From a virus (Duplodnaviria; Caudoviricetes): a stretch of 64,000 bases of DNA. Under the pieces are notes generated by a model. That model searched no databases. It had not been told where the DNA came from and saw nothing but the letters and a program-made list of their open reading frames with translations. This document shows positions 33,081 to 53,381 of the stretch, piece after piece; positions within the stretch are counted from its first letter, which is position 1, and each line of letters begins with the position of its first letter. Position numbers and translations under genes: made by a program. The DNA lies in the IMG/VR virus record IMGVR_UViG_3300034171_000062, positions 32,001 to 96,000 of that record; one strand, given 5' to 3'.

Positions 33081-33110
33081 CGGAATAAAAGGAGACCCGA
33101 AGGTCTCCTA
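33081..33110 (-). terminator. intrinsic terminator ending the desaturase run
   Basis: AGGAGACC-TTCG-GGTCTCCT-TTTATTCCG (- strand). Confidence 0.8.
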
Positions 33111-34678: not shown

Positions 34679-34687
34679 GATGGTCTC

Positions 34688-35482: not shown

Positions 35483-35487
35483 GGTAA

Positions 35488-36246: not shown

Positions 36247-37456
36247 AGCGAGAAACTCCCAGTACGCAGTTGAGCCCACCAAAACCAAACGCGTTTTTGA
36301 CAAACGCCGTCATGGGTTTTCGAATGGGGGCCTTAGGTAAGTTGATGGGGGGCAAGTCTGGATCGTATTCCAAGTTGCCGTGTGAAACAATGAAACCTTC
36401 TTGCATCATGTACAGACACAGGATCAATTCAACGATGCCACTGGCTGTGACGCTGTGGCCGAGGAGCCGTTTAAGAGCCACCACAGGCACGTCTTTAGAT
36501 CTCTCGCACTCGGCCAACACTTTGGCTTCTATAGCGTCGCCTTTGAGCGTAGAGGTCGCGTGAGCAGAGATAAAGTCCGGACAGATGCCATACCGATGCC
36601 ATAGGGTGTCTAAGACCGACGATAATGAGGCCAGTCCACCTTCGCCGGTGGGGTTGGTTAGGTCGTGTCCATCGGAGTAATCGGCGTACTCCAACGCGAT
36701 GCCGTAGTTGCGTTGCTGGGTCTCGGGGCGTTTAAAATACGCGGCCCTGGATTCCAAGATCACACACCCGGCGCCTTCGCCGACGGTGAAGCCTGCTCGG
36801 TGCGGTGAGAAGGGGACCGAGGCGTGCTCCAAGTTCGGCCCGCGATACAACGCCCGCATGGCATCGAACCCTCCGACAATTTCTTGTAAGACCTTCTCAA
36901 CGCTGACGCAAATGACAACGTCGGCCCGACCTAACTCAATCAGGTCCATGCCCTGAGTCACCACACGGAGGCCGCTGGCACAGGCGTGTTGTACGGTGTG
37001 GATTGGTCCCTTAATCCCCAGAAGGGTGGCTAGAGGACCCGTCACAGCCGTAGGGAGTGACTTTAAGAGATCGAAGGGCGAACTGCGTTTGTCTGGGTTC
37101 ATTAACGACGCATGAGCGTCCATCCCAGTGGCCCCAAACGCTGAAACCAACGCCACCCTCGGCCCTGTCTCCGAATCCCGACACACGGCCTCAGGATCGT
37201 ATCCGGCGTCTTTTAACGCTTTGCGGATAACGTAGTAAGAGAGGTTCAAGGCGTCGTTAGCAATACTCCGGGGGATGTCTGGCGCTAAGAATTGGGTATT
37301 CTCAATGCAAGGTGCGACGGAGGTGGCCTTGACGTGGGGCCAAAGTTCGATCAACGGTTGTATAGTCACGCGTTCCATCTTCAACGCTGAAACGATCTCT
37401 GAATGGTCGGTCCCATACGGTGAGAGAGAGCCGATGCCGGTAATGATTGCAGACAT
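36239..37456 (-). CDS. beta-ketoacyl-ACP synthase (FabB/FabF family)
   Basis: ITGIG, HACASG (catalytic Cys), GEGAG, AHATST..GD, KRLLGHS, NAFGFGG. Confidence 0.92.
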   Translation of the reverse strand: MSAIITGIGSLSPYGTDHSEIVSALKMERVTIQPLIELWPHVKATSVAPCIENTQFLAPDIPRSIANDALNLSYYVIRKALKDAGYDPEAVCRDSETGPRVALVSAFGATGMDAHASLMNPDKRSSPFDLLKSLPTAVTGPLATLLGIKGPIHTVQHACASGLRVVTQGMDLIELGRADVVICVSVEKVLQEIVGGFDAMRALYRGPNLEHASVPFSPHRAGFTVGEGAGCVILESRAAYFKRPETQQRNYGIALEYADYSDGHDLTNPTGEGGLASLSSVLDTLWHRYGICPDFISAHATSTLKGDAIEAKVLAECERSKDVPVVALKRLLGHSVTASGIVELILCLYMMQEGFIVSHGNLEYDPDLPPINLPKAPIRKPMTAFVKNAFGFGGLNCVLGVSRYV

Positions 37457-37527
37457 GGCGATGTCCTGTGTAAATGTGGGTTTGAATCGATATATGTGAG
37501 ACCAGGGTGCACAATTACGTTGGACCA

Positions 37528-37565
37528 TAAGGCAACCGCAGCCCGATTGGACCACCGTTGCCTTA
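37528..37565 (-). terminator. hairpin between the oxygenase block and the ketosynthase
   Basis: TAAGGCAAC...GTTGCCTTA-TGG stem; no T-tract. Confidence 0.4.
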
Positions 37566-37572
37566 AGTAAGA

Positions 37573-38097
37573 TCACTCTAAAAAGTCGATGATCAATAAG
37601 CCCAGTTGGGACCCATTACTGCCCCCCACTAAGGTGAGAAACTTTCCACTCAGTCGAACGATCTCTTTCACGCCCACCGACTCGTCGTTGATCAGCACGT
37701 CGTTCTCCGCCACCGCCAAGTACCCGGTCTGGGTCAACTCGTAGGTCTCCCCCGGTGCCAGCACTATCTTCTCAGCGGTGATGACGCGGTGTTTGGCGTT
37801 GCCGGTGCTCAAACAAAAGCCAACGGTGCCGTCTTCCAGCGCTTCCACTTCGGCCCACCGAGGGTTGGCCTTTGTAGGCACGGGGTCCGAGGCCCACAGA
37901 GTGTACTCGTTAAACGTGTTGCGGGTATGGGTACCGCCTTGCACAATAAACCGAGCTTCTTTAACGGGGATGAAATCGTCGGCCATGGTTTCTTGGTAGT
38001 CGGGTTTTCTACCTAGAATGAACTTCTCACCTTTGTCCACGTAGAACCAGGCGCAGGCTACGCCTTCGTCTTTTAGTCGATGCACTCGAGTTCGCAT
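37573..38097 (-). CDS. hypothetical beta-rich (possibly cupin-like) protein
   Basis: AAGGA RBS; part of the cluster operon. Confidence 0.65.
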   Translation of the reverse strand: MRTRVHRLKDEGVACAWFYVDKGEKFILGRKPDYQETMADDFIPVKEARFIVQGGTHTRNTFNEYTLWASDPVPTKANPRWAEVEALEDGTVGFCLSTGNAKHRVITAEKIVLAPGETYELTQTGYLAVAENDVLINDESVGVKEIVRLSGKFLTLVGGSNGSQLGLLIIDFLE

Positions 38098-38107: not shown

Positions 38108-38662
38108 TTACTCTTTAAGGTAAACGTCAATGGGAATGGCCAAACGCAACCCAACGCGATGTTCCTGCACGTAGTGTTGCAAGTACGACGGAAAGATCAG
38201 CAGCCCTCCCCGCTCGGGCTTGTGCTTGTACGTTCGGAAGTGGTTGTTGATCACGTCGTGTGGGTACCCACGAGAAGCCAATCCGCGAGGGTCTACCATA
38301 GACAGGTACCCTTCTTCGCCTTCCAAGTAATACAACGCTGAGACGTGAGCACCGCTGTGGTGGTGGAGTGGACTGCCGTGACCGTCACTGCTGTTGCGTA
38401 CCCAGGCTTGCCAATTGTCGATCAGGGGTTCGTAGTTAAACTGATCCCACGCGTACTGCATCATCAAAGGCACCACGTTCTCCGCAATGAACTTCTTGAG
38501 GTTGGGGTACTGAGGTAAGTGCAGATTGCGCGTTTCATCGATGTGCTGCCCGTCCAACTGCCTCGGTTGCATCATCGCCTCGTACACTAGGGCGTCGTGG
38601 TTCTCGGCAACAACCGTATCGGCGCGAAGGACGACTGGCCAAGGGTGAATGTCGATGGGCAT
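38108..38662 (-). CDS. 2OG-Fe(II) oxygenase (TIGR02466-like)
   Basis: AWV...HxH..., SALYYL, DPRG, LLIFPSYLQHYV, R.AI. Confidence 0.85.
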   Translation of the reverse strand: MPIDIHPWPVVLRADTVVAENHDALVYEAMMQPRQLDGQHIDETRNLHLPQYPNLKKFIAENVVPLMMQYAWDQFNYEPLIDNWQAWVRNSSDGHGSPLHHHSGAHVSALYYLEGEEGYLSMVDPRGLASRGYPHDVINNHFRTYKHKPERGGLLIFPSYLQHYVQEHRVGLRLAIPIDVYLKE

Positions 38663-38671
38663 GGAAACTCC

Positions 38672-39238
38672 TTATGTCGGTTCTTGCAGATAGATATCCA
38701 CTGGGATAGACACCCGCATGTCTTTGTCGTGACCGTCGACGTAGTGTTGCAAGTACGACGGAAAGATCACCAAGAGACCTTCTTTGGGGACCTCGCTAAA
38801 CAGATTGAAATGGTCGTTGCGCACCTGCGTTGGATACCCTCGACACGCCGACCCACGAGGATCGACCAAGTTGATCGCGCCACCGGAACACGCCATAGGG
38901 TAATAGATAGCGGACAACACCGACCCACTGTGTTCGTGCAACTTCATTCCTTGGCCGTCGGTGGTGACCCGGACCCAGGCGTTGTACGTGTACTGGACAG
39001 CGTCCAACCCCCAGCAGTCGTTAAGGTAAGCGAGCATCCTCGGAAGGATGTGCTCGTTGAGAAACGCGTTGGTCTGTGGGAAGTCAGTGTCCGTGACCGT
39101 GTTCTCATCCAGATCGAGGTTGTCAAAGTTACGGTTGGTTAAGCGCATCAGAGACTCGGTCACCAGGACCTCATTGTCCACGTCCTCTAACACGCTGCGC
39201 CTAACTACTGTTCGCCAAGGTTCGATGTCTTGAAACAT
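38672..39238 (-). CDS. 2OG-Fe(II) oxygenase (TIGR02466-like), paralog
   Basis: HEH, SAIYY, DPRG, LVIFPSYLQHYV, RVSI. Confidence 0.85.
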   Translation of the reverse strand: MFQDIEPWRTVVRRSVLEDVDNEVLVTESLMRLTNRNFDNLDLDENTVTDTDFPQTNAFLNEHILPRMLAYLNDCWGLDAVQYTYNAWVRVTTDGQGMKLHEHSGSVLSAIYYPMACSGGAINLVDPRGSACRGYPTQVRNDHFNLFSEVPKEGLLVIFPSYLQHYVDGHDKDMRVSIPVDIYLQEPT

Positions 39239-39657
39239 TCTGCCTCCGCCATGCACTCGGCTCGAAAATACGCAACGGTGTAGTCAACCCACTGGCCCGT
39301 TAAAGGAATGTTTTCCACCCCCCCAAAGGTATCAAGGATGGCGTCGTACGTGGTTGGGTCTTGTGAGTAAGGCACGAAATATTCGTCGTTGCCGTACAGC
39401 AGATCCGGGTCGTCCAACACCTCGAAGAACGCTTCGTTGAAGTGCTCCCACAAGAGACGCGCGTAGATCAACGCCACCGCATACGACTTCGCCGGATAGA
39501 CCAACACGTCTTGAGGGTCGGTGAAGTAAGCCACGGCCGGCACCACTAAGTCGTCGTGGTCCACCACGATGTCAAAGTTCTCCAACGCGTCCGTGTGTTC
39601 GGGCGTCATCAGGTGATACAGTTGCTGGTTGAGTTTCCAGGTTTTTTTGTGACTCAT
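39205..39657 (-). CDS. hypothetical cluster protein
   Basis: ATGA-coupled to a radical SAM gene; YPAKSY motif. Confidence 0.7.
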   Translation of the reverse strand: MSHKKTWKLNQQLYHLMTPEHTDALENFDIVVDHDDLVVPAVAYFTDPQDVLVYPAKSYAVALIYARLLWEHFNEAFFEVLDDPDLLYGNDEYFVPYSQDPTTYDAILDTFGGVENIPLTGQWVDYTVAYFRAECMAEAECFKTSNLGEQ

Positions 39658-40742
39658 GCGCTCCGCCTCACCCAATTAAATTCACTTCTCAAGTCGCGGG
39701 CGGTGGAAATGCACCGATCGGCCTTGGTGATCTCCATCACTTTCTGCACGCCCCGTACCGCGCACTTGGCAACGAACTCACAGCCGCCACAGACGCCGTT
39801 GGACTGGGCTAACGTGATACACTCGAACATAGACGCTTCTTCTTGAGTAAAGATGTTCTCGAAGGTCCAGGGTCCGGCAACCCGATGTTCCGGTTCGAAT
39901 GAGGAAAACGCTTCTACGATGAACGGGGGGACAAACATCTCTCCGTTGCGATACACCACGTCCCAATCCTCACCCTCGTTGGTTTGCAGTTCCACAATTT
40001 CAAAGTGCTCGCCCTTCTCGTTGGCCGCGATGCGAGACTGAACCAGTAAGTGGTTCAAGTGGTGGAGGCTGGTTAGAAACCGATCCCGATTGGCTGGGTC
40101 TCGCAAACTTTCACGCCCATGGGGTAAAATGATGTCACTGTGGCTGGTGGGATGAAGATCGATGCGGTACGCCCGGGTCATGATGTCACTGGTCATGGTA
40201 AACCCACGTTTGGCGTCGTTGGCTATCGACTCTTCAAAGTTCATCACGCTGTAGACCCGAGTGATCTTCACCGTCTTCAAACAACTTTCAAAATACGCCA
40301 CCCGTTTGCAAAGCTTATCGACGTAGGACGGGTTGTCGATGTGTCTTACTTCAAAGGGCACGGTAAACTTCAACAACCCATTGGGAATCATCGCCTCCAT
40401 CTGTTGGGCCAGCTTTTGATAAATGAGGGGGTTGGGATCAAGGAACGCGCAGTTCAAAGTCGTCTTCATGAACCGCCGGGCAATGGACAAAACTCTGGGG
40501 TGTTCCAGAACGGCGTCTCTATTGTCAGAACTCAAAATGTCCGTGGGTCCTATGATGAAGTTGAGCATCTCCAGTTCTGCCACCTCGAAGCTGTCAAGCA
40601 TAGCGTCGATCCGGTCAAATTCTTCTTCAGTAGGAAGAACGTTGTCTTCTTTCTCCACCATACAGCCAGAGCAGTTGTGACGACATCCGGAGGCGATCTC
40701 CATAGTGAAGTCGATTAACTTATTGATTTGGGATATGTGCAT
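39654..40742 (-). CDS. radical SAM-like protein (atypical; no GGE motif)
   Basis: CRHNCSGC (Cx3Cx2C); GPTD in place of GGE; C-terminal CGGCEFVAKC. Confidence 0.75.
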   Translation of the reverse strand: MHISQINKLIDFTMEIASGCRHNCSGCMVEKEDNVLPTEEEFDRIDAMLDSFEVAELEMLNFIIGPTDILSSDNRDAVLEHPRVLSIARRFMKTTLNCAFLDPNPLIYQKLAQQMEAMIPNGLLKFTVPFEVRHIDNPSYVDKLCKRVAYFESCLKTVKITRVYSVMNFEESIANDAKRGFTMTSDIMTRAYRIDLHPTSHSDIILPHGRESLRDPANRDRFLTSLHHLNHLLVQSRIAANEKGEHFEIVELQTNEGEDWDVVYRNGEMFVPPFIVEAFSSFEPEHRVAGPWTFENIFTQEEASMFECITLAQSNGVCGGCEFVAKCAVRGVQKVMEITKADRCISTARDLRSEFNWVRRSA

Positions 40743-40746: not shown

Positions 40747-41802
40747 TCACCAGTTGCATTTGTGACCGAGTTTGCCAAGTATGGATAAACACCGATCCGT
40801 CTCCAGTAATCGCTGAACACGGTGAACGCCCCGCGTAGCACATTTACTGACAAATCGACATCCGGAACAGTCATTAGACTGCGACGCGCGCGTAATCGAT
40901 TCGAAGAAGGTGTCTTGATCCGAACGTTGTATTGAATCCAATGTCCAAGGCTTCTCAAATTTAAAGTCGGGGTGGAAGACAGCAATCGGACTGTTAATAA
41001 ACGGTGCGATGTAAAGATCCCCATTCCGATAGGCCAAATGGTAGTCGGCCCCAACGTGAGCGCTCAAGTCGTCGACTGTGAACTCGTATCCGGCGTCCAC
41101 TTGATTGGCAAAGGTTTGGTTCTGTTTTAAGATGGCGCGCAAGAACTCATCGCGATCTTCCTTTACGCTGAGATCCCGGCGGCCGTAGTGAAACACGAAC
41201 GTGGTGGTGTCCGATTTCTCAAACAACTCGATGTGTCGGGTGGCGTAAAGAACCTCTTCATTGATCAGGCCGTTATCAAGCATGGACTCGGTCATGTTGA
41301 CGATGGCCGTCACGCTGGCGATTGTGACTGTTTCTAAGTGTTGATTGAGCCAAGCAATCCGCCCTCGGAGTTTCTCCAAGTAGGCGACGTTGCGGTGGTG
41401 TTTCAATTCAACGGGCACCAAGAACTCTACGTTCAGACCGGGCATAAACGCGTCCAACTCTTTAGCGAATTCCACGTAAGCATCGGCCTTGGGATTCAAG
41501 AACGAACAGTTAAAGACCACCGATTTAAACCCAGTAACTAGATCCCGTATGATGGGATGAGTCAATACGTCGGTCCGGTTGCTGGCCGACATGACGTCCA
41601 CCGGCGCAAACTCCATCCACGACATCTCCCACCCGCGCTCACGCACGTCGTCCACCACGTCCCGTAAGGCGTGGAGGTCGTCTTCGGTGTATGGGGTTAC
41701 ACCTGTGGTGTTAACGCTGCACCCTGAACACCCGTAGTCGCAGTCTTTCAGTAGTTCCAGTGCCAGGTTACCAATGTTGTCCCCTCGGATCATAATCGTC
41801 AT
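40747..41802 (-). CDS. radical SAM-like protein (atypical; paralog of the previous gene)
   Basis: CDYGCSGC; APVD in place of GGE; C-terminal CSGCRFVSKC. Confidence 0.75.
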   Translation of the reverse strand: MTIMIRGDNIGNLALELLKDCDYGCSGCSVNTTGVTPYTEDDLHALRDVVDDVRERGWEMSWMEFAPVDVMSASNRTDVLTHPIIRDLVTGFKSVVFNCSFLNPKADAYVEFAKELDAFMPGLNVEFLVPVELKHHRNVAYLEKLRGRIAWLNQHLETVTIASVTAIVNMTESMLDNGLINEEVLYATRHIELFEKSDTTTFVFHYGRRDLSVKEDRDEFLRAILKQNQTFANQVDAGYEFTVDDLSAHVGADYHLAYRNGDLYIAPFINSPIAVFHPDFKFEKPWTLDSIQRSDQDTFFESITRASQSNDCSGCRFVSKCATRGVHRVQRLLETDRCLSILGKLGHKCNW

Positions 41803-42743
41803 TGTGTCTCAGCCCATTGCAATAAGTGAATGAACCCGTTGCACGACTGGTCGGTACTCTGCACGTCTCTCAGGTGTTCTGACAGACACCGTCCAAAATA
41901 CGTACAGCCGCTGCAACCTGATGTCAGTACCCTCGTCTTCTCAGTGTCACACCACGCAAAATACGCGTCGATGCTGTCCATCTCCAAGAAGAACTCGTTG
42001 TCCGCCTCATCGAACTCCAACACGCCAAACTGGCCGCTGGGGGTGATGTACACATGGTCGTCGGAAAACGCGTTGCGCTGGCCAGACAGACTCTCTTGAA
42101 TCTGCTGAGCGTTGACGAATTCAAACTTCATCTCAGACTGACGTTCGTACAATTGCTTAATGAACGCCTCGTACTCCGGGTATCCTACCGGCAACTGATT
42201 GGCCTGATTCGGACTGTAGGGCTTGATCTCCACCGAACTGAGATTGGCCAGAAGATTCAATGTCCCAACAATCTCATCGGGGGTCTTTGCTAGAACCTCT
42301 GGGGTGGCCAAGATCAGAATCGAGAACTCCCGCTCCATCTTTAACATCTGTTGAAAGACGTGTTCGTGTCTCTCGCGTGCATCGAAGTCGTAGCTGACTG
42401 ACAAGTACCAGTCCGGGTCGTGCATCACAGCGTTGTTCACAGACAGATTGGTGATGATGTTCAGATCGTCGATCCCGCGGGCGTGGAGACCTTCTTTTAA
42501 TTCGTTGATGTACTCCGAAGGCAACAGCAACGGTTCGCCTCCGTAGAGGTCCACCATACCCACGGGTCTATGTGCCAGCACCTCATCCACACGTTCAAAC
42601 AACCGTGTCAGCGACAGACGTTTCTTGTCTGCCAGTTGCACTGGAGTCAAGTAACAGAAGTTGCATCGGAAGTTGCAGTAGTACGAAGGATTTACCGACA
42701 AATTGATCGGTTGATCAGTCGACGTTAACGAGTGTAAGTTCAT
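41799..42743 (-). CDS. radical SAM protein
   Basis: CNFRCNFC, YGGEP, TNL, C-terminal CSGCTYFGRC. Confidence 0.9.
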   Translation of the reverse strand: MNLHSLTSTDQPINLSVNPSYYCNFRCNFCYLTPVQLADKKRLSLTRLFERVDEVLAHRPVGMVDLYGGEPLLLPSEYINELKEGLHARGIDDLNIITNLSVNNAVMHDPDWYLSVSYDFDARERHEHVFQQMLKMEREFSILILATPEVLAKTPDEIVGTLNLLANLSSVEIKPYSPNQANQLPVGYPEYEAFIKQLYERQSEMKFEFVNAQQIQESLSGQRNAFSDDHVYITPSGQFGVLEFDEADNEFFLEMDSIDAYFAWCDTEKTRVLTSGCSGCTYFGRCLSEHLRDVQSTDQSCNGFIHLLQWAETQ

Positions 42744-43812
42744 CGATACTCTCATCCACATAGGGGGTTGGGATCAAGATCCCGGTTAATCCGTTGGCTT
42801 CGATGAGGTCGGGGGCCAGTGCTTTCATCTTGCGACAGTGTTCTTCGACGCGGCCGGTCTTCTTGGCGTCTCGGATGCTCTTCTTACAGCCGTTGCAAAT
42901 GGAGAACATGGGACAGAAGTAACAGTCCTGCTTTAAACTGTCCAACTCAAACACCTGAAGTGGGAGTTGCTTCTTACCCGTCATTTCTTCTTCGAAGTTG
43001 ATCGGGTATTCCCCATCGTCACCAAAGGAACCGCAGGAGTAATAGTCCCCACTCGGCTGCATGGCCCGGATGCCAGAGTCGCACGTGCGCTTCAAAGGAC
43101 ACGTGGTAGCACCACCCGCTAGGGCAACGGTCATTTGTTGTGTGCCGTGTTCCCACTCAGTCAGTCCTCGGCGATGGAGGTCCAGATAGACTTCGTACAT
43201 GTCCGCTACCAAGAAGTGCTGACCTTCATTGCCCATGGTGCCTTTCTTGGTTTGAACAACCGGCCCGGAGGCGTTGGCGTAGTTCAGCTTACACGACACA
43301 CCCATGGCCTTGGCCAACTCTACGGTTTTCACCGCTTCATGGCGATTACTCTCATCGACGACGGCGATGAACGTGGGGCGGTATCCTACGTGCTCTAACA
43401 TGGTGTCTGAGACGGCCCAGAACTCGTCTTCGGTGAACGGGGTATAATCCCCCTTCAATCGTTTCTCACCGTACTGGAAGCTCGTAGCGACGCCCACACG
43501 AGGGTGATTGAACAGAGGCGCCCACTTCCCCGGTTTCTTGTAGAACGGCCAGAGATTGGAGGTCAGTGAGATGCTGGTGTTTTCCATCTTCAACTCGTCC
43601 AACATCTCAATCAAGGCCCAGTAATACGCCGGTGGCATCATTAACGGGTCGCCGCCGTTGACGATGATGGTGTTGGTTTCCGGGAAACGTTCCAAGAACC
43701 GACGTATATCGACCAACTCCAGAATGTCGTTGCTGTCCTCGGCGATGTTTGTGCTGGAACAGAACGTGCATTTAAAGTTGCATTTCTCCGTGGGTTTGAT
43801 TATGAGATCAAT
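42715..43812 (-). CDS. radical SAM/SPASM protein with apparent ATT start
   Basis: Frame extends past the track start to IDLIIKPTEKCNFKCTFC; GGDP; C-terminal CYFCPMFSICNGC; AGGAGG 8 nt before ATT. Confidence 0.88.
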   Translation of the reverse strand: MDLIIKPTEKCNFKCTFCSSTNIAEDSNDILELVDIRRFLERFPETNTIIVNGGDPLMMPPAYYWALIEMLDELKMENTSISLTSNLWPFYKKPGKWAPLFNHPRVGVATSFQYGEKRLKGDYTPFTEDEFWAVSDTMLEHVGYRPTFIAVVDESNRHEAVKTVELAKAMGVSCKLNYANASGPVVQTKKGTMGNEGQHFLVADMYEVYLDLHRRGLTEWEHGTQQMTVALAGGATTCPLKRTCDSGIRAMQPSGDYYSCGSFGDDGEYPINFEEEMTGKKQLPLQVFELDSLKQDCYFCPMFSICNGCKKSIRDAKKTGRVEEHCRKMKALAPDLIEANGLTGILIPTPYVDESIDELTLVNVD

Positions 43813-43841
43813 CTTACTACCCTCCTAGCCCGGAGGCTCGT

Positions 43842-44900
43842 TTAAACGTTCAGTGTGGGTATGCGTTGAGCGGCACCATCGCTGACGGCGTCGATGTATC
43901 GATGGGTGGCTTTGTACACACACTCATCCATTTCGTCTCGGTGGCGATACGCGTGTTGCATGAAGCACCCCAACTCACAGCGTTGAAAGTACTCGCACGT
44001 CAAGCACCCATATTTCTCCATGAAGTGTTCTTCAATGCCCCGATTGCTCTGCGGATCGATGGGCACTTCGTAGATCTCTTCGGCAATCTTTGGGTCGATG
44101 AGGTTACCGCACCCACAGGTAGTGCCGTCTTCCAAAATCAACTTACTGGATCGACACGACAAACTACTGGACTTGCGTTCCATCCACCCAGCGATCGGTT
44201 CGCAGTTTGGGTAGTTATCGATCAAAAACGTAAACAACTTGAACAGATCCAAATCGCCTGGGGCGGCTGGAGTAACTTCATCGGGCATCAGGTAATCGAA
44301 ATAGATCTTAAACCCAGCGCCATAGACCCATTTAAAGAACGCGTCCTGATCTCTTAGGAAGTGATCGATGTTCTGCTTGGTTGCGACTAGACAGACGCTT
44401 CTAATGATTCTGGGTCCGAAGTATTCTAAGTTGGCTTTAAACGCTTCAAACTGCTTGCGGTTAAAGCGACCTTTGGGATCGTAGGACGTCGTGAACGTCG
44501 TGGGAATGCCCGCCGTTGCGCACTCTTCAATGAACAGACTCAATTGAGTTCGATCGTCCGTCACCAGGTTGGTCACCCAGTTAAGCGTGACTCGGATGTT
44601 ATTCAAGCGTGCGTGGGCTACGATCGCTTGTGCCAGTTTTACGTACGCCGCGCGCATCGTGGGAGTAAAGACCTCCGGCGCGAAGACCTCCCCACCCATG
44701 ATGTTAAACACCACAACCGACTTGGTCTCCTTGTCCAGAAGCTTCACCACCGCGGGCAATTTCCCCAGTATATCGTCCACGCCTACTAAGGAGTCGTGGT
44801 CCTGCCAGCAGAAACTGCACGACAGGTTACAGTACTCGAACAGGTGTATCGTGTATTCCTGTTCGGGGTCTCGCTTGCTGTTCAATAAGAGATCGGTCAT
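43842..44900 (-). CDS. radical SAM/SPASM protein
   Basis: CNLSCSFC, MGGE, C-terminal CLTCEYFQRCELGC. Confidence 0.9.
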   Translation of the reverse strand: MTDLLLNSKRDPEQEYTIHLFEYCNLSCSFCWQDHDSLVGVDDILGKLPAVVKLLDKETKSVVVFNIMGGEVFAPEVFTPTMRAAYVKLAQAIVAHARLNNIRVTLNWVTNLVTDDRTQLSLFIEECATAGIPTTFTTSYDPKGRFNRKQFEAFKANLEYFGPRIIRSVCLVATKQNIDHFLRDQDAFFKWVYGAGFKIYFDYLMPDEVTPAAPGDLDLFKLFTFLIDNYPNCEPIAGWMERKSSSLSCRSSKLILEDGTTCGCGNLIDPKIAEEIYEVPIDPQSNRGIEEHFMEKYGCLTCEYFQRCELGCFMQHAYRHRDEMDECVYKATHRYIDAVSDGAAQRIPTLNV

Positions 44901-45910
44901 AGTTCGAACCCTTTACACGCCTCCGACTTCAATCCCACCGCCCAATGGATGACGTGGACTTTTAACTTGTCCATGTCGGCCCAATCTAGGTAGTCGGTGT
45001 GTTCGTTGCTGGCACGTATCATGGAAATGAAAAGATCGGTTGCTTCGCCATCCTCAATCGGGTCGACGCTGCTGATGATCCTTAGTTTGGCCCGTTCGGC
45101 TTCGATTTGCAGTTTCTCGATCTGAGGTTCCTGATCCAGATACAAGGCAAAGTCCCGACACAGCGCGTCTTGAGTGGGTTGTTTCATCCGCGTGATCCGA
45201 AGCGTCAGATTGGGGTCGGTCAAGAAATTGAACCCAGGTACCTTACGCAGTAAATTCACCTCGCCGACGTGCTGGCTGGCGTCGTATCCGTACTTCTTCT
45301 GCATGTGGGCTGAGAAGAACAAAGACACCAGATTACGCTGAATTTCATGCACGTGATTGATCGTCGACCGTAACGCAAACATACGTACGTCCTCGGCGAT
45401 GCTTACGCGCTTGTTGCCTGAAAGATAGTCCAACAACTTATACTCCAGAGAGAGCTTCTCTGGAATGTCGCGCACCACCGTCCGAAGGTCGGCGTCGCCT
45501 TCGAGGTTGGCGTAATCTGAAACCATCTCTTTAACGACTTCCCCTTTAGGTAACGCCACGCCCTGAGTATTCAATGCCACCAGTTCCAGTCCCAATAGGG
45601 TTTGTACTTGACTCAGAGTGGCGTTGGGGAAAATGGCTTTCAGCCACTTACTGATCAACTTACCGTAAGACTCAAGACTGGTGTAGATAACGATCTTCTT
45701 GTCCCCTACGCCTTTATACTGCGTGAGTAACTTAGTGAAACCGGTGGCCACAAACTCATCTTCGTCAGCGGTCAGTCCCATTAGGATAGGACCAGCAAGT
45801 TCTCGCTCGTCGTAGTTCTCAGCCATAACCTTGGAGGCCAGGTAGAACGCATGTTTTTCCGATTTGATGCTATCCACGGCTAGGTAGATGCGATTAAACA
45901 AATGATACAT
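44897..45910 (-). CDS. hypothetical cluster protein
   Basis: 337 aa; coupled at both ends. Confidence 0.75.
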   Translation of the reverse strand: MYHLFNRIYLAVDSIKSEKHAFYLASKVMAENYDERELAGPILMGLTADEDEFVATGFTKLLTQYKGVGDKKIVIYTSLESYGKLISKWLKAIFPNATLSQVQTLLGLELVALNTQGVALPKGEVVKEMVSDYANLEGDADLRTVVRDIPEKLSLEYKLLDYLSGNKRVSIAEDVRMFALRSTINHVHEIQRNLVSLFFSAHMQKKYGYDASQHVGEVNLLRKVPGFNFLTDPNLTLRITRMKQPTQDALCRDFALYLDQEPQIEKLQIEAERAKLRIISSVDPIEDGEATDLFISMIRASNEHTDYLDWADMDKLKVHVIHWAVGLKSEACKGFEL

Positions 45911-46635
45911 TACGTTTCCTCGATGGCTATTTCGTCGTTCTTTAAAGCGACGAGCGCGTCTTCGAACTCTTCGTTCGTAAGCATCTCATCGTCCACCATA
46001 GACACCAGAAGAACGTGTAAGTCGTTCTCTGGAATGGCCCAAAACGAAAACAGGTTCTTACTTTTGAACATGTAGTCGTTAAAGTACTTGGTGTAATTCC
46101 GCACCAGGCCGTCGTTTACCACTTCCATGGCGATAGGAAACAACGGATTGTCAAACAGATTGACAAAGTTGATGCCTTTGGTGTCTGCCGTGTCGTCGAC
46201 TGGGTAGTTGTTGACCAGCGCTTGCAGGGCGTCGTCTTGAATGGTTGTCATCATGTACAAACTCATGGAGTCGATCAACGACAGCCACTTGCCCAATATA
46301 CCGAGTCGGTCTTTAATCCATTTGTCGGTCACCCAATTGCACACACCCAATCCCTTGATGTGGAGCATTACTTCCAACACCATGGTTTCCAACTTCTTAC
46401 ATTTCAGTAAGGTGGGTAGGTTCAAATACGCGTCCAACACCTCCAAGGCGTCCTCACCCAAAAAGGTGACTTCAACCGGTAGGTCTAGGTTACTTAAGTA
46501 GATCAGGGCTTGCAGTGGGTTTACTCGATCCTTCGAGGCCGACAGGTCGATCTCCAAAGAGACCTCTGGATCGCCGATGATCTCCCGAAGGGTGGCGACG
46601 GGAATGGGGACGGTGGTTTGGACTACAGTACTCAT
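45910..46635 (-). CDS. hypothetical cluster protein
   Basis: TAATG-coupled; AGAGGA RBS. Confidence 0.75.
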   Translation of the reverse strand: MSTVVQTTVPIPVATLREIIGDPEVSLEIDLSASKDRVNPLQALIYLSNLDLPVEVTFLGEDALEVLDAYLNLPTLLKCKKLETMVLEVMLHIKGLGVCNWVTDKWIKDRLGILGKWLSLIDSMSLYMMTTIQDDALQALVNNYPVDDTADTKGINFVNLFDNPLFPIAMEVVNDGLVRNYTKYFNDYMFKSKNLFSFWAIPENDLHVLLVSMVDDEMLTNEEFEDALVALKNDEIAIEET

Positions 46636-47192
46636 TAACGACGTCCTCTTGAGTTGTGACAGCTGTCGTGACATTGGGCGTGACAGATGTCGCGCGCTAA
46701 CGTGTGGGTGGTGTTCACTCGGGCGTAGTTATAATACGCATTGCGTAACCGTTCAATGAACCCGTCCGCGCCCGCCCGATCGATGGCGTAGCCGTCGTCC
46801 ACCGTGCCCGCAGCTTGGGCTGGGATGTTGATTTCCTGGGCGGCGGTTAGATTGGCGATGGTCGTGGTGTCGTATATCACTCTATACCCATTGCCTGACG
46901 ACCACCCAGTCCGGTTCTGACGGATATAAATGCGTGTCCGGCGGATGCGGGAGTAGTTCTTCATATACGCATGCAGGGTAGCGCGCATGGTGTCGGCATC
47001 CAATACCCCACCCGGACCTTCAATCGCCGCGTAGGGCGGCAATGAGTAGTATCCGCTGGTAGTGCCCCCAAACCATCCGTACAGGGAATTTGCTGGGTAG
47101 TTGTTGGTGCCCCAGGATATCCCACTGCGGGACAGGGCACTTACCCTTTCACTGAATTTTAAGTAGACGTCTGCTGTCTTGATCTCGGCCAT
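46635..47192 (-). CDS. candidate modified substrate / virion protein ending in CHAQCHDSCHNSRGRR
   Basis: 185 aa; Gly/aromatic-rich body; all three Cys in the terminal (CHxx)3 motif; flanked by rSAM genes. Confidence 0.75.
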   Translation of the reverse strand: MAEIKTADVYLKFSERVSALSRSGISWGTNNYPANSLYGWFGGTTSGYYSLPPYAAIEGPGGVLDADTMRATLHAYMKNYSRIRRTRIYIRQNRTGWSSGNGYRVIYDTTTIANLTAAQEINIPAQAAGTVDDGYAIDRAGADGFIERLRNAYYNYARVNTTHTLARDICHAQCHDSCHNSRGRR

Positions 47193-47238
47193 GTCAAGGT
47201 TCCTATAAGTTTAAATGTCCATACGATCTAACGATCCT

Positions 47239-48297
47239 TTATCCCACGTTAAGTACCGGAATGATATCCGTCTCTCCGTATTTAAAGTGAGATAGGAGCA
47301 ATCTCAATCCAGGACACGAGTTGCCCTGCCAAATCAGTCGATGGCAGTCCCCGCCACAGACATCGAATAAGTGACAACTTAAGCAGTTGGGGTTAACGTC
47401 CAGTTCGTCGACAATGCGTTCCGTACGACCGTCGCTTAAAAGGAACTCTTCCAAATTGTCGTCCAAGGTCCCGTTCGATTCCACCTTGGCGCCGTTGGCA
47501 CACCCGCCGATGTTTCCTGCGCCGTCTACCGTAAACAAGTTCTGTTCGCACGTGCGGCAGTTGGTGTCTACGTTATACTGGTTGGTTTCGAACTTAGTCT
47601 CTATGGTTTCCAACGTGCCGATGGTGAAGTTGGGTTTCAGACGTTTGTACGCGAAGTACAAATCGTAGTAAAACTTATCCACCGCCCGATTGTCTGGGAA
47701 CATATGGGGGTTGTCCACCGCGTTGCCGTCGGAAGTTAGACGTTCGATGGCCACGTCCGTCACCCCAAACGTCCCCCACAACTTGATCAACTCATCGACG
47801 TTGTACGTAAGAGTCTGATCGGTGACGGTCACAAACATCTTAATGGTGATGTTCATGTCTCGCAGAGTCTTCAAGTTCCCAAGCCACTGTTGATACATCC
47901 GCTCGGTCTTAAATCGATACACTGGGTCCCAACTCGTACCGACGTGACTCCCCATCACTTTGATGAAAAAGTTCGTGTGTTCATCGGTCAACTTATATAT
48001 GAGATTGGTGGTGGCGCCGATTGAGATGTCGTCCCAGCGTTCTTCGCCCACCAGACGTTTGACCGTTAAGGCAAAGTCCCAATGTTCGTGAATAGGACGT
48101 AAGAAAGGCTCGCCCCCATGTAACTCCAAATGTAAATGTTCGTCGTTGAACTGCTGAGCCAACTCACTGACCCACCCAGCAACCTTCTGAGTATCCCAAG
48201 CAGTCTTCGCCCCCTTCGACCCTGAGGTAAAGCAGTGATCGCAATCCAGATTACAAGTGTCCGTTGGTTTGATGTACACTACCTTCATAACTGCCAC
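47239..48297 (-). CDS. radical SAM/SPASM protein
   Basis: YIKPTDTCNLDCDHC, LHGGEP, CRTC...GC...CLSCHLFDVCGGDC...C. Confidence 0.92.
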   Translation of the reverse strand: MAVMKVVYIKPTDTCNLDCDHCFTSGSKGAKTAWDTQKVAGWVSELAQQFNDEHLHLELHGGEPFLRPIHEHWDFALTVKRLVGEERWDDISIGATTNLIYKLTDEHTNFFIKVMGSHVGTSWDPVYRFKTERMYQQWLGNLKTLRDMNITIKMFVTVTDQTLTYNVDELIKLWGTFGVTDVAIERLTSDGNAVDNPHMFPDNRAVDKFYYDLYFAYKRLKPNFTIGTLETIETKFETNQYNVDTNCRTCEQNLFTVDGAGNIGGCANGAKVESNGTLDDNLEEFLLSDGRTERIVDELDVNPNCLSCHLFDVCGGDCHRLIWQGNSCPGLRLLLSHFKYGETDIIPVLNVG

Positions 48298-48770
48298 CGG
48301 TCTTCTAAGAATTGTTCGTTACCAAAACTGATCATGATCGATTCGAATTCGTTTGTAGCACGATGCATAACGCCCGCCGGAATCCACACCGTTGGGTTGT
48401 ATATCGGATCGAGGGTGATGACCTCCCCACCAATTTCAATCGTCTTTTTACCGTAAACGCATTTCAGTAGAATGTCGTACGGGTCTTCATGCAACCTAAA
48501 GCTAGGCGCGCCAGCCACCGCCCAAAACAGATGTGCGTTGCACGGACCGTCGTGACCGGTTTCCTTCTTTATCCGAACCGTCTCCAACTGCACCTCTCGG
48601 AACACCCGTTCCAACTCTTCCACCTTGATGGTCTTTAAGGAACCGTCGAACGCCTCAGCCACTGAGCTTATCGGGCGAATGTGGTGGTCGGTGTCGATGC
48701 GAGAGACCAAACTTTCCTCGTACAGATCCGGCAGCGTCAGCAGCATTTCAATGCGGTCTTTAAAATCCAT
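48285..48770 (-). CDS. JmjC/cupin-type Fe(II)/2OG hydroxylase
   Basis: NAHLF...SFRLHEDPYD (HxD)...GKK...WIPAGVMH; GAGGAG RBS. Confidence 0.8.
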   Translation of the reverse strand: MDFKDRIEMLLTLPDLYEESLVSRIDTDHHIRPISSVAEAFDGSLKTIKVEELERVFREVQLETVRIKKETGHDGPCNAHLFWAVAGAPSFRLHEDPYDILLKCVYGKKTIEIGGEVITLDPIYNPTVWIPAGVMHRATNEFESIMISFGNEQFLEDRWQL

Positions 48771-48791
48771 GGCGGGTCTCCTCAGTAATCT

Positions 48792-48795
48792 CATA
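48792..48795 (-). promoter_or_regulatory. putative TATG late promoter heading the modification cluster
   Basis: TATG lies between the upstream terminator and the RBS, as in phiKZ late promoters; a short motif, so weak evidence. Confidence 0.4.
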
Positions 48796-48822: not shown

Positions 48823-48854
48823 ACGGAAAAAGAGAGGACCCGAAGGTCCTCTCT
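48823..48854 (-). terminator. intrinsic terminator
   Basis: AGAGAGGACC-TTCG-GGTCCTCTCT-TTTTCCG (- strand). Confidence 0.85.
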
Positions 48855-48872: not shown

Positions 48873-50516
48873 TTACTGCCACTGAGGTGGCCATACCACG
48901 CGCCAGGCGCCACTGACGAACGCGTGCAACTGACCGCCCACTTCCCGAAGGGAGAGCGATTCTGCCACGTTCTTTTGCACATACTCAGTTAGCACGTTGG
49001 TCAAACGCCCACTGACGTAAGATTCGACTAAGGCCGGGGTCATGTACCGATCGATGGCGGTGCCTGAGACGGCTTCTGTCTCATTGGCGACCGGGAAGTT
49101 CTCCACCAGACCTAACCCGGTCTGCTCCTTCGTAACCGCGTGGGGGTTGGTCTTGTCGTTAACGTGCGCAGTTAACTGATCCCCTGCAATCTTCTCGATG
49201 GCTTCTCTAACCCGCATGGGCGTCATGTACCGAGTGTTGCTGGCGCCCGATTCTGCTTCGGCTGTATCGGCTATCTGTAGGTTCTCAACGCTACCTAAGC
49301 CCACCTGCGCCTTACTGACGTTGTGGGGGTTGTTAATGGCGTTAACGTGCGCATTAAACGCCTGCCCGACTAACTCGTCGATGGCAGACGCCACCACCGT
49401 GGGCGACATGTATCGATCGCCACGCGTGGCTTCACGCCCGTCGGCCTCATCCGCCATTGGGTAGTTTTGCACGGCCGACAATCCGACCTGAGCCTTAGTG
49501 ACGTTGTGTGGGTTCGACTCGTCATTGATGTGGGCCTGCATCCGATCGCCAAAGAGAGTCTGTACTCCGGCCTTCATGGTAGCTGGGGTAACGAATCGAT
49601 TGGTGGCCGATCCGGCCTCCGCTTCCTCGACAGTCGCATCCGGATAGTTAGACACCGACCCCAACCCGGCCTGCGCCTTGGTCACGTTGTGGGGGTTGTC
49701 GGTTCTCGCCGTATGGGCGTTGAACGGAAGAGTGGCCTGTTCGTTAATTGCCTGAGCCACTCGAAGTGCCGTCATGAACCGAGCGTTGGACGTTCCGTCT
49801 CGTGCCTCTAATTCCGTCGCGGTGCGGTAGTTATCAAGTAACCCGAGTCCCACCTGAGCCTTAGTGACTACGTGTGGGTTGTCAGTACGGGCTTCGTGAC
49901 TGTGCAGTTCGTCGCGTACTTCTTCCGCCCGTACCAACGCTTTCTGATACCGGTCTTCGATCATCGCCTTGAGTTCGTCGTGAGACGCGATGTCGCCGTA
50001 CAGAACGGCCTGCCGGATGCCGTTCAACGCCTCGACTACAAATTCAAACCCATACAGGTCGCCCAAGTCATGAAGGTGCTTGGAGGGGGGGAATGCATCG
50101 GGCCGCCCCAAAAGATCGCCCCACATGACCTCACGTTCATCCAGGTTCAAATTCTCGATGAGGTCGATGATAACCTGAGTGATGTTCGCGTAGTCCCCAC
50201 CCAATACTTGGTAGTTGATGGACAGCTCGTTGGACACCTCAGGATCGGTGACGATGAGGCCGGCACATACTTCTTTACCTGACCGTTCTGACGGATCGGC
50301 GTAGTACATGATCGGAATGTACTGATCGTTCGGAACCAGTATTTCGCCGGTGTCGGCGTCGGTGACCACCAACGACTCGGTAAAAAACGCCCCGTAACGA
50401 GGAACCGCCGCGCGGTTGATGCCCGGTTCCAATGTGTGTAGTTCGCCTAAGATATTATTCTCAGGCGCCGTCCCTGTCAAATCCAGGGGATACTTTATGA
50501 CGTAGTTCTCGCTCAT
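48873..50516 (-). CDS. phiKZ-like tail fibre/baseplate protein with NPH repeats
   Basis: N-terminal YPLDLTG...N.I.GE.H domain; five H...NPHxV(T/S)KxQxGLG-type repeats. Confidence 0.85.
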   Translation of the reverse strand: MSENYVIKYPLDLTGTAPENNILGELHTLEPGINRAAVPRYGAFFTESLVVTDADTGEILVPNDQYIPIMYYADPSERSGKEVCAGLIVTDPEVSNELSINYQVLGGDYANITQVIIDLIENLNLDEREVMWGDLLGRPDAFPPSKHLHDLGDLYGFEFVVEALNGIRQAVLYGDIASHDELKAMIEDRYQKALVRAEEVRDELHSHEARTDNPHVVTKAQVGLGLLDNYRTATELEARDGTSNARFMTALRVAQAINEQATLPFNAHTARTDNPHNVTKAQAGLGSVSNYPDATVEEAEAGSATNRFVTPATMKAGVQTLFGDRMQAHINDESNPHNVTKAQVGLSAVQNYPMADEADGREATRGDRYMSPTVVASAIDELVGQAFNAHVNAINNPHNVSKAQVGLGSVENLQIADTAEAESGASNTRYMTPMRVREAIEKIAGDQLTAHVNDKTNPHAVTKEQTGLGLVENFPVANETEAVSGTAIDRYMTPALVESYVSGRLTNVLTEYVQKNVAESLSLREVGGQLHAFVSGAWRVVWPPQWQ

Positions 50517-52229: not shown

Positions 52230-53381
52230 TTACGACGCTTGAAGACTTGCCAGAGCGTCGGTGAATGCGGTTTCCAGAGACGTCAACGCAGCCGCTGTAT
52301 CGACTTCCATTGCATCACGAACCCCTTTCACGCCTGCTGGAGTTACAAACAGGTTGGTGGCGGTACCAGTGACGGTTTCAGGAACCGTCGCAGTTGCAAA
52401 GTTATCAACCGAACCAAGACCAACGTCAGCTGCTGTGACCGCATCGATCGCGGCAATGGCAGCATCGATGTCAGCTTGAGTAGCTTTGGCATCGATCTGT
52501 GACTGAAGGCCAGACGCGACAGCGTCCGTGTGTGCCTTGGTCAGAGCCGGCGTCATGTACTTATCAGTCACCAGACCGGCAACCGCTTCTGGGCTGGTGG
52601 CAACTGCGTAGTTAGCAACGTTACCAAGACCAACGCTTGCGGAAGTCAGGGCAGCAACGGCCGCATCGATGTCGTCTTGATCAGCTTTAGCGCCGATCTG
52701 AGCAGTCAGTCCGTCGATGATGTCTGGGTTGTTTTCCAGAGCCGCCGCCAGTTCAGCGATGGTGTCCAGAGTAGCCGGGGCAGAACCAACCTTCTGGCTC
52801 CAGAACGCATCCATAACGTGCCACAGAACCTGAGTGGTCATGAACTTGTCGGCAGTTACAACACGAACGACCAGCTTGTCGCCAACGGTAGCGCCAGTGG
52901 TCAGGGTGACTGTGTCGCTGGGGACGTCGATGGTGTAGTTAGCATCGCTGATGCGGTTGTCGTTCAGTTCAACGTAAACAACGGCACCGTCTTCCAGTTC
53001 CAGAGTCGCTGCGTTATCATCAACGCCGGAGAACGCCGTCTGACCTTCAGTAGCGGTGTACAGGAAGCCGATACCCGCCGCTTCAAGTTCAGTCGCTGAC
53101 GCGAAGTTGTCAACCATATCCAGACCAACCTGAGCGGCAGTAACGCCGTGCGGGTTGTCAGTACGAGCAATGTGAAGGTCCAGGGAGTCTTGAACGTTTT
53201 GAACGGTCAGACCGGTGGTACCCGCAATCAGTTCAACCACTTCGTTGAGAGTCAGACCCTCAAGTTTGCCGGAGTTGGTCGCATAGTCAGCGCTGGAGGC
53301 GCTCTGAAGCTGAGTTTTCAGTTCGGCGGCAAATGCGAGAATCGCATTACGAACCGCAGTATTTTGAGTATCGTACGACAT
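52230..53381 (-). CDS. tail fibre-like protein
   Basis: NPHGVTAAQVGL repeat, YTATEGQTAF beta module, APATLDTIAELAAAL motif. Confidence 0.8.
   Translation of the reverse strand: MSYDTQNTAVRNAILAFAAELKTQLQSASSADYATNSGKLEGLTLNEVVELIAGTTGLTVQNVQDSLDLHIARTDNPHGVTAAQVGLDMVDNFASATELEAAGIGFLYTATEGQTAFSGVDDNAATLELEDGAVVYVELNDNRISDANYTIDVPSDTVTLTTGATVGDKLVVRVVTADKFMTTQVLWHVMDAFWSQKVGSAPATLDTIAELAAALENNPDIIDGLTAQIGAKADQDDIDAAVAALTSASVGLGNVANYAVATSPEAVAGLVTDKYMTPALTKAHTDAVASGLQSQIDAKATQADIDAAIAAIDAVTAADVGLGSVDNFATATVPETVTGTATNLFVTPAGVKGVRDAMEVDTAAALTSLETAFTDALASLQAS

Follow-up and report, generated by a model that had tools for sequence, protein, structure and literature searches.

What do the radical S-adenosylmethionine (rSAM) enzymes encoded by giant phages act on? 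The question is raised by a stretch of 64,000 nucleotides, here called the window, that covers positions 32,001 to 96,000 of the IMG/VR record IMGVR_UViG_3300034171_000062 (Duplodnaviria; Caudoviricetes). The viral record measures 170.6 kb and is estimated to be 62% complete, so its source is a jumbo phage of approximately 275 kb. Among the tail-fibre genes of the window, a run of rSAM genes encloses the gene of a 185-residue protein, termed protein A, that ends in a (Cys-His-x-x)3-Arg-Gly-Arg-Arg tail. We propose, with a probability of roughly 0.55, that protein A is associated with the virion and that the rSAM/SPASM enzymes of its own operon mature its disordered tail. The invariance of the tail, its modularity, its predicted disorder, its genomic context, the coupling of protein A to the rSAM enzyme R1, the enzyme type of R1, the detection of a homologue (gp170) in virions and the precedent of HxsA are counted in favor of this maturation.

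Maturation by rSAM enzymes is known for peptides and for a few cellular proteins, namely sulfatases, QhpC and, recently, the antiphage effector HxsA. Literature searches returned no description of rSAM maturation for a protein of a virus particle, and no paper on protein A, its motif or the function of the rSAM cluster. In papers on jumbo-phage genomes, rSAM genes are noted only for being unusual or are grouped under 'DNA repair / host metabolism'. The pairing of an rSAM maturase with a repeat-bearing protein substrate is of a known kind; what would be new here is its setting, the virus particle, and the module itself is undescribed.

The C-terminal repeat of protein A

The open reading frame (ORF) and its translation bear out the initial annotation, which had described a protein with three Cys residues, all in a terminal (CHxx)3 repeat. 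Protein A ends in ICHAQCHDSCHNSRGRR, and Cys170, Cys174 and Cys178 of this tail are its only Cys residues. The gene ends in ...ARDICHAQCHDSCHNSRGRR followed by the TAA stop codon, which overlaps the start codon of the next gene, B (TAATG at 46635). The body had been called Gly/Tyr/Trp-rich and adhesin-like. Gly (9.2%) and Tyr (8.1%) are indeed moderately abundant, but Trp accounts for only 1.6%, and the AlphaFold2 model resembles neither an adhesin nor any other known fold. Computed from a 40-sequence alignment, the model forms a compact alpha/beta domain with a mean predicted local distance difference test (pLDDT) score of 82 and a predicted template modeling (pTM) score of 0.76. The last 10-15 residues are disordered in the model, with pLDDT values of about 50 and below and a weak helical tendency at residues 172-175, and the tail is therefore predicted to be disordered and exposed. 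No convincing fold match was obtained from Foldseek against the PDB, a wide VIA-align search or the ESM atlas (best Z 5.0; all Foldseek E values >0.05). The BFVD search returned family members and three larger Myoviridae proteins and nothing else, the profile of protein A found nothing among PDB sequences, and there were zero NCBIfam matches. No signal-like hydrophobic segment is seen at the N-terminus by eye; no dedicated signal-peptide predictor was used.

How strictly is the tail retained? A first-round word-indexed search gave 60 homologues of 175-241 residues with identities down to 28%. In their alignment (A1), only an N-terminal pair of blocks, SWGTN..P and FGGTT.G, and the C-terminal C-H-x2-C-H-x2-C-H-x-S-R-G-R-R are invariant. 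The bodies are only about 30% identical among homologues despite the shared tail, and most proteins lack any other Cys. An exhaustive profile search of 1.84 billion representatives extended the family to 719 representative clusters at E<=0.001, 109 of them at E<=1e-30. The initial annotation had suggested a pattern search at C-termini, and the motif proves to be terminal in every first-round protein (CH..CH..CH..R.RR in 63 of 63) and, as the canonical (C-H-x-S/N)3-R-x-R-R, in 185 of the 202 members retrieved by profile. Among these 185 canonical tails, no variation is seen in the Cys and His residues or in the closing R-x-R-R. Each unit has Ser at its fourth position, or less often Asn, Ala or Gln, and the family consensus reads vCHaSCHsSCHxSRGRR. 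Such a motif is far beyond chance.

Could the tail nevertheless be a by-product of a nucleotide constraint, or of chance? In the window, TGTCAC occurs three times within the tail-coding DNA as a 12-nt repeat, and the Arg-Gly codons of the tail (AGAGGA) lie 8-13 nt 5' of the gene B ATG, which is a Shine-Dalgarno distance. The caveat in the initial annotation that these codons double as the ribosome-binding site of the next gene is thus correct as to placement, but the conservation of the tail operates at the protein level. In 77 distinct homologous tails, Arg is encoded by AGA, CGT, CGC, CGA or AGG, Gly by all four of its codons, and Cys and His by both of theirs, and a Shine-Dalgarno-like string is found in only 49 of them. 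Synonymous codon variation together with the patchy occurrence of this string indicates selection on the tail peptide rather than on a DNA repeat or the ribosome-binding site of gene B. Given this variation and the retention of the tail across lineages at about 30% identity, the nucleotide explanation is refuted and has practically no probability left.

The tail varies in repeat number and is found on different bodies. One protein (P0180) has two units, and three others (P0166, P0185 and P0212) have four units and a different, Gly-rich ending. In protein P0156 and in contig L097 (3-362), the tail has grown to 13 C-H-x-S repeats, which form CHxSCHxSCHSNV(P)V modules; L097, 4.3 kb long, is filed with an isolate assembly of Dysosmobacter segnis, and on this contig the 13-repeat A is followed by B, C, R2 and R3. 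The A domain of P0064 and P0066 is fused to or interrupted by a Gly_rich_2 domain and retains the same tail, which also occurs on the apparently different bodies of P0067 and P0068. Contig L095 (9195-10030) encodes tandem proteins of 137 and 140 residues with a different body and the canonical tail, placed directly after a 2859-residue fibre-like protein and before an R6-like rSAM gene. Tail-bearing proteins of about 300 residues are found in Agrobacterium phage Atu_ph07 and Sinorhizobium phage Phosso. Shorter, peptide-only forms were seen only as fragments of 68-100 residues on short contigs or at contig ends. By analogy, repeat substrates of rSAM enzymes typically vary in repeat number and move between bodies, and metal-binding tails can do likewise.

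Two further arrangements were observed. The A gene is tandemly duplicated (u-R-A-A-B-C) in three related marine viral contigs (L083, L084 and L085). Contig L101 (8317-15314) encodes a four-repeat A that ends in GDGPG..GGV instead of R-G-R-R, and it has only two rSAM genes, R1 and a further one whose best match is R3; from this single observation, it is possible that the tail end co-varies with the enzyme content.

A conserved radical SAM module

Which genes accompany the tail? The first locus set comprised 91 loci, that is, 80 IMG/VR loci collected with the family profile plus named phages and metagenome contigs. Their ORFs were classed by iterated hidden Markov models built from the window proteins, and each rSAM protein was assigned to the window paralogue that it matched best. 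The order cupin-R1-A-B-C-R-R-R-(R-R)-x-oxygenase(s), in which R denotes rSAM genes, is nearly universal (Table 1). The orthogroups R1 to R4 always follow one another as R1-R2-R3-R4, and 42 loci have these four and no others; R5 and R6 are additions belonging to one clade and occur in only a subset of loci. The protein A gene lies between rSAM genes, as initially annotated, with R1 upstream and R2 downstream past two orphan genes. An occurrence of the motif without rSAM neighbours, which would have spoken against the initial proposal, was found nowhere among the 91 loci, phage Phosso and 10 later contigs of metagenome, metagenome-assembled genome (MAG) and isolate origin. In all 10, which include the Dysosmobacter contig and loci of variant architecture, rSAM genes stand beside A.

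R1 lies immediately upstream of A in nearly all loci, and this coupling extends to isolated phages. A tblastn search with R1 against 50,697 phage records identified 15 records, consisting of pPa_SNUABM_DT01, eleven records of the RSL2/RSF1/FLC group, two of Atu_ph07 and Phosso, and in 15 of 15 a tail-bearing A follows R1 directly. Cultivable phages that carry the module infect Pseudomonas, Ralstonia, Burkholderia, Agrobacterium and Sinorhizobium. Neither R1 nor the RSL2 A protein matched phage RP31, whose genome contains other rSAM genes.

The initial annotation further credited the gene with its own upstream TATG. The tetranucleotide is present at 47220-47223, 31 nt 5' of the protein A ATG, but a promoter role does not follow from it. 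TATG has a density of 2.4/kb, at which approximately one in ten gaps of this length (46 nt) is expected to contain it by chance; moreover, an upstream TATG is seen at few other window genes, and the R1-A gap in other phages amounts to a few bases. Because its frequency does not exceed chance and the R1-A gap is nearly absent in related phages, TATG is not taken as the promoter of the protein A gene.

R1 is a radical SAM/SPASM enzyme by its motifs and by its scores, which pass the cut-offs of both PF04055 (30 bits versus 29.5) and the SPASM model TIGR04085 (28.4 bits versus 27). In an alignment of 27 orthologues (A4), C15, C19 and C22 (CxxxCxxC) and G61-P64 (GGEP) are invariant, as are eight Cys residues of the SPASM region (C247, C250, C266, C305, C308, C314, C318 and C328). 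Its best NCBIfam matches are PapB, at the top, and DynA, AmcB, YhhB, anSME, HxsB, DarE, GrrM and FxsB, all far below their cut-offs, and its profile matches anSME, CteB, ChlB and YydG among PDB sequences. Since the maturase matches are below cut-off, R1 belongs to none of these families, and their chemistry cannot be transferred to the rSAM enzymes of the module.

A C-terminal core next to a SPASM enzyme is also the layout of MftA/MftC and PqqA/PqqE. Could protein A, which shares this layout with R1, be a scaffold whose C-terminal residues become an excised cofactor or natural product, as in pyrroloquinoline quinone, mycofactocin or pearlin-type pathways? The ketosynthase and desaturases in the clade of the window might then decorate the product further. 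A beta-ketoacyl synthase (KAS) and four tandem fatty-acid desaturases are indeed encoded on the same strand beyond the oxygenases, and such genes lie downstream in two relatives of the window. However, these genes are a clade-specific accessory addition, with KAS homologues in only 3 of the 91 loci and desaturase homologues in 2. Pfam and NCBIfam scans recognised neither a peptidase nor an amidase in the conserved core of the module, the body forms a conserved folded domain that has been detected in virions for one homologue, and conservation extends to the last amino acid. We consider an excised product quite improbable. Nor is there support for calling protein A a precursor in the sense of a ribosomally synthesized and post-translationally modified peptide (RiPP), as the initial annotation had done. 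An adjacent maturase and conserved core residues are present, but the product is a 185-residue protein with a folded body rather than a short leader-core peptide, and no protease for leader cleavage and peptide release is recognisable in the operon.

A homologue in phage particles

Is protein A part of the virion? In Supplementary Table S5 of the published virion mass spectrometry of Agrobacterium phage Atu_ph07, gp170 appears as a 31.89-kDa hypothetical protein, for which 8 unique peptides gave a coverage of 35% (PMC6102473). The Atu_ph07 homologue of protein A (AUZ94952.1) computes to exactly 31.89 kDa, and it is identified as gp170 by this exact mass and by an accession-to-gp offset that the exact matches of gp176 (66.07 kDa) and gp177 (21.66 kDa) confirm. 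In the gel, gp170 was found in bands 1-9 with its peak in band 1, the top band, whereas other proteins of about 30 kDa in the same table peak in bands 7-8 (PMC6102473). Its operon neighbours gp168 (C), gp169 (B), gp171 (R1) and gp172 (cupin) are absent from the virion list (PMC6102473). This evidence concerns one homologue in a published table, from a phage other than that of the window, and it lends outside support to the initial suggestion that the repeat is fused to a virion protein.

The same detection bears on a different function, in which protein A would be a helper of the enzymes and not their substrate, that is, a cytoplasmic carrier of Fe-S clusters or sulfur that fills or mends the [4Fe-4S] sites in the four to six rSAM/SPASM proteins during infection. 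Its CxxxCxxxC spacing is reminiscent of motifs that bind clusters, the cluster demand of the operon is high (R1 alone has 11 invariant Cys residues), and A is always co-encoded with the enzymes. A carrier would, however, be expected neither to be robustly detected in virions from which the enzymes are absent nor to share its tail with fusions to fibre-type Gly_rich_2 domains and with proteins encoded behind giant fibre genes. Profile and fold searches found no similarity to A-type, Nfu or Isc carriers, and the basic R-x-R-R end and the Ser positions would have no role. Thus, a carrier function is very improbable.

Comparison with characterised systems

The closest working principle is offered by the HXS antiphage system, in which two rSAM enzymes mature HxsA, a protein of about 214 residues that bears HxS repeats and whose S-H-R-S-S motif shows a mass change of +8 Da (Li et al. 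2026, PMC13128918). Compared with its components, the effector HxsA, the rSAM maturases HxsB and HxsC, and HxsD (TIGR03976-03979), the phage module likewise combines a protein-sized candidate substrate with at least two dedicated rSAM enzymes and a small helper, and its tail resembles tandem H-x-S units followed by basic residues. The phage units hold H-x-S/N triads in the form C-[H-x-S]-C-[H-x-S]-C-[H-x-S]-RGRR. The resemblance is limited to the motif level, in that an invariant Cys precedes each His of the phage tail and the period is 4 instead of 3. In addition, protein A has neither a peptidoglycan-binding domain nor a recognisable signal peptide, and the module is phage-encoded, with a homologue of A in virions, four rSAM orthogroups and oxygenases. 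Protein A does not match the HxsA model (TIGR03979, cut-off 121.65 bits), and R1 reaches 38.7 bits against the HxsB cut-off of 370 (TIGR03978); therefore, the phage module resembles HXS in working principle but does not belong to that system. Genome-wide, TIGR03979 matched only the peptidoglycan-binding domain of an endolysin (25567-25701, 22.6 bits), whose gene also encodes an N-acetylmuramidase domain (Table 1).

Sulfatase maturation provides a second comparison. The enzyme anSME, which is among the best family and PDB matches of R1, is a SPASM protein that modifies a Cys in a full-length protein, and the last phage repeat, C-H-x-S-R, shares the Cys, the Ser at +3 and the Arg at +4 with C-x-P-S-R. 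The tail does not conform to the sulfatase motif C/S-x-P/A-x-R, as its +2 residue is Gly, Ser or Asn, Ala in 5 of 185 tails, and never Pro. R1 scores 41.3 bits against the anSME cut-off of 349 (TIGR03942), and the phage system differs in lacking a sulfatase domain and in having three Cys residues and four enzymes rather than one of each.

The thioether-forming ranthipeptide (PapA/PapB, SCIFF), sactipeptide (CteB) and QhpC/QhpD systems resemble the module in their fixed-spaced Cys residues beside SPASM maturases. PapB is the top NCBIfam match of R1 and CteB is among its top PDB matches, and QhpC is a protein subunit that is cross-linked by an rSAM enzyme. R1 is not a member of the ranthipeptide PapB family (NF047865, 49.1 bits versus a cut-off of 340). 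The residue at Cys+4 of the phage tail is Cys or Arg, unlike the Asp/Glu acceptor of PapB substrates, and protein A is a folded, probably virion-associated protein without a leader peptide or a recognisable RiPP recognition element (RRE). The triceptide maturases FxsB, GrrM/OscB, YhhB and AmcB cross-link aromatic residues, including His, to the beta-carbon two residues on, a pattern that the H-x-S/N units fit. R1 weakly matches AmcB, YhhB, GrrM and FxsB; the scores are far below the cut-offs, however, and the invariant Cys has no role in known triceptides.

Other Cys- or His-containing repeats are more distant. The CXXX-repeat system (TIGR04115) has a tandem C-x-x-x target, and only R4 matches its maturase, at 16.2 bits against a cut-off of 350; to our knowledge, CXXX-repeat targets are short bacterial peptides of uncharacterised chemistry. 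The tail is not a haem-c site, since its spacing is C-x3-C-H instead of C-x-x-C-H. In phage T4, the gp37 fibre tip is stabilised by metal through His-x-His iron sites inside a trimeric beta-structure, and it thus shares with the phage tail the repetition of metal-ligand residues in a protein of the adsorption apparatus. The two have no sequence or fold similarity, and the T4 sites are not located in a terminal disordered tail and need no dedicated enzymes.

Proposed maturation of the tail

We propose that protein A is a structural or accessory virion protein of jumbo phages and that its (Cys-His-x-Ser/Asn)3-Arg-Gly-Arg-Arg tail may be the target of the maturation enzymes encoded around it. The core enzymes would be the four rSAM/SPASM orthogroups, with R1 encoded upstream and R2-R4 downstream; the cupin and one to three 2-oxoglutarate (2OG)-Fe(II) oxygenases would probably assist, and B, C and x could be non-catalytic helpers or enzymes of unknown type. 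The repeat would then be a RiPP-like 'core' at the end of a folded protein, comparable to HxsA, the sulfatases and QhpC, and not part of a leader-core peptide. As candidate chemistry, we prefer Cys thioethers of the sacti/ranthi type or His-to-Ser/Asn C-C cross-links in the C-[H-x-S] units. Next in preference is the conversion of Cys to formylglycine in the last C-H-x-S-R unit, possibly with hydroxylation of His or Arg, whose side chains would be available to the oxygenases. In the virion, the matured tail might for instance lock onto a tail or baseplate partner, covalently or by way of a metal. The initial reading of a RiPP-like core fused to a virion protein is supported in part, by the fixed rSAM operon, the invariant Cys/His tail and the virion homologue, but not as regards a leader-type RiPP precursor.

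Several points weigh against this proposal. A modification has so far been observed on zero family members. Tails with three Cys and three His residues are also classic metal ligands, and the targets of the module enzymes could instead be nearby fibre proteins or a small molecule. All matches of the rSAM proteins to characterised maturase families lie far below the cut-offs, no RRE/PqqD-like recognition domain is recognisable in the module, and the sharing of one operon by the oxygen-dependent cupin and 2OG enzymes and the oxygen-sensitive rSAM enzymes is unexplained. The Atu_ph07 virions were purified by polyethylene glycol only, and some of the 131 proteins listed are plainly non-structural (PMC6102473). 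In addition, the gel loading buffer contained no reductant (PMC6102473), so the high-mass species of gp170 may be plain disulfides of unmodified tail Cys residues.

Would metal binding by an unmodified tail be sufficient? Three Cys and three His residues at i/i+4 spacing could coordinate Zn, Fe or Cu, perhaps on the axis of an oligomer, and thereby stabilise or lock a virion protein as in the long-tail-fibre tips of T4, while the rSAM enzymes act on fibres or on a small molecule. The composition and regular spacing of the tail, its weak helical tendency, the occurrence of gp170 in virions and in high-mass species that are SDS-stable or non-reduced, and the placement of the gene among fibre and baseplate genes are all consistent with such a role. 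Metal binding leaves unexplained, however, why A adjoins R1 so strictly and co-occurs with it in 15 of 15 isolate records, why four SPASM maturase orthogroups accompany the gene in every lineage, and why Ser/Asn occupies the fourth repeat position and R-x-R-R the invariant terminus. The expansion to 13 repeats is more typical of repeat substrates, yet it is compatible with metal binding. A metal site was also named as an alternative in the initial annotation. We regard an unmodified metal-binding tail as the main rival of tail maturation, unlikely but deserving serious consideration.

A broader form of the maturation proposal is that jumbo phages of several unrelated lineages carry a pathway of four rSAM/SPASM enzymes and Fe(II) oxygenases that produces a covalently rewired Cys-His-Ser repeat at the C-terminal end of a virion protein. 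The lineages concerned would be phiKZ-like chimalliviruses, Rak2-like phages, and uncultured marine and soil myoviruses. We put forward this generalization tentatively, at somewhat less than even odds. On this broader reading, protein A would be the first structural component of any virus particle to be matured by radical SAM enzymes, with a new cross-link chemistry on the C-H-x-S unit and a function in tail/baseplate locking, envelope penetration or the countering of entry-blocking defences such as HXS. Tail maturation would also account for the 'unusual' groups of six to eight radical-SAM genes for which jumbo-phage genome papers have given no function. The module offers four new SPASM enzyme orthogroups together with a defined candidate substrate and may reveal how giant phages build or arm their adsorption apparatus, and its cultivable carriers make it directly testable.

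Other genes and features of the locus

Table 1. Features of the module and its surroundings in the window, with the occurrence of module genes in the first locus set
Feature	Position	Strand	Description	Presence in 91 loci
Fibre-like protein	52230-53381	(-)	flanks module	
Fibre-like protein	48873-50516	(-)	flanks module	
Hairpin	~48826-48854	(-)	GC-rich, UUCG loop and T-run	
Cupin / JmjC-like small oxygenase	48285-48794	(-)	module head; JmjC_2 weak; Cupin_2 on homologues	83/91, first position
R1	47239-48297	(-)	rSAM/SPASM, upstream of A; PF04055 30 bits, phrog_1802 1e-53	
Protein A gene	46635-47192	(-)	intact ORF, ATG start, TAA stop, 185 aa	91/91
Protein A tail, C170-R185	46638-46685	(-)	(C-H-x-x)3-R-G-R-R	
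B	45910-46635	(-)	241-aa orphan, TAATG-coupled to A; phrog_20767 2e-38	90/91
C	44897-45910	(-)	337-aa orphan, poorly conserved; only Y9 invariant (alignment A3)	87/91
R2	43842-44900	(-)	rSAM/SPASM orthogroup 2; phrog_1802 5e-44	
R3	42715-43841	(-)	rSAM/SPASM orthogroup 3; phrog_1802 2e-38	
R4	41799-42761	(-)	rSAM orthogroup 4; PF04055 33.6 bits, phrog_1802 4e-42	
R5	40747-41802	(-)	divergent rSAM-like, phrog_31457, no Pfam Radical_SAM match	
R6	about 39654-40742	(-)	divergent rSAM-like, phrog_31457, no Pfam Radical_SAM match	
rSAM proteins, all			330-385 ORFs in total	91/91
x	39205-39675	(-)	156-aa orphan closing the rSAM block, no Pfam match	68/91, fixed position
Two 2OG-Fe(II) oxygenases	38108-39256	(-)	PF13759, E 3e-15 and 4e-14	69/91 (PF13759-type), module end
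KAS and four tandem fatty-acid desaturases	33108-37576	(-)	beyond the oxygenases	
Fibre	30303-32663		S74 chaperone domain	
Endolysin	24931-25731	(-)	PG_binding_1 and N-acetylmuramidase	

What could the orphan proteins contribute? The AlphaFold2 model of B has a pLDDT of 87 and matches no known fold in Foldseek searches of the PDB or wide VIA-align searches (best Z 4.7; all Foldseek E values >0.05), and the B profile found nothing among PDB sequences. C has no Pfam, NCBIfam or PDB match. The alignments of B and C contain no invariant catalytic-type residues, and feature searches of the ESM atlas with both proteins gave only sub-threshold leads (LRR/FNIP, HopA1 and a 'pseudo-rSAM' at TM 0.34). 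B and C are not degenerate rSAM proteins according to hhalign (probability <4% against rSAM families), and the comparisons of B with C, of B and C with A, and of x with oxygenases likewise all gave probabilities <4%. A complex prediction for A and B, run without controls, scored 0.00 and weighs neither way.

Among the enzymes, the window cupin scores 16.8 bits against the JmjC_2 cut-off of 22 and is thus sub-threshold, which leaves hydroxylation of His by the cupin a candidate reaction at most. The CxxxCxxC motif of R3 (CNFKCTFC) lies in frame within 43717-43841, upstream of the first ATG, GTG or TTG of the ORF at 42715-43716, and an in-frame stop codon is found a few codons beyond the motif on its upstream side. 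Because the motif lies 5' of the first start codon, the R3 start is non-canonical or further upstream, or the gene is mis-called. R6 probably starts near 40742 and not at the listed TTG at 41054.

The module also occurs on five contigs assigned to bacterial MAGs, namely L091, L092 and L094 (Bdellovibrionaceae bins), L093 and L096. Three MAG-assigned contigs are rearranged to o-C-R1-R6-A-R1-B-R6-R2-R3-R4-x. The MAG-assigned contigs are probably mis-binned phage contigs. Megablast of the 12-kb region against the phage collection gave zero matches, as did tblastn of the same collection with the distant family member P0022.

The fibre-like proteins that flank the module contain many repeats of the type N-P-H-x-V-T-K-A-Q-V-G-L-G, and another fibre with an S74 chaperone domain is encoded farther away (Table 1). 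The nearer fibre gene and the cupin gene are separated by a GC-rich hairpin that has a UUCG loop and a T-run, and the transcription unit of the module therefore probably starts at the cupin.

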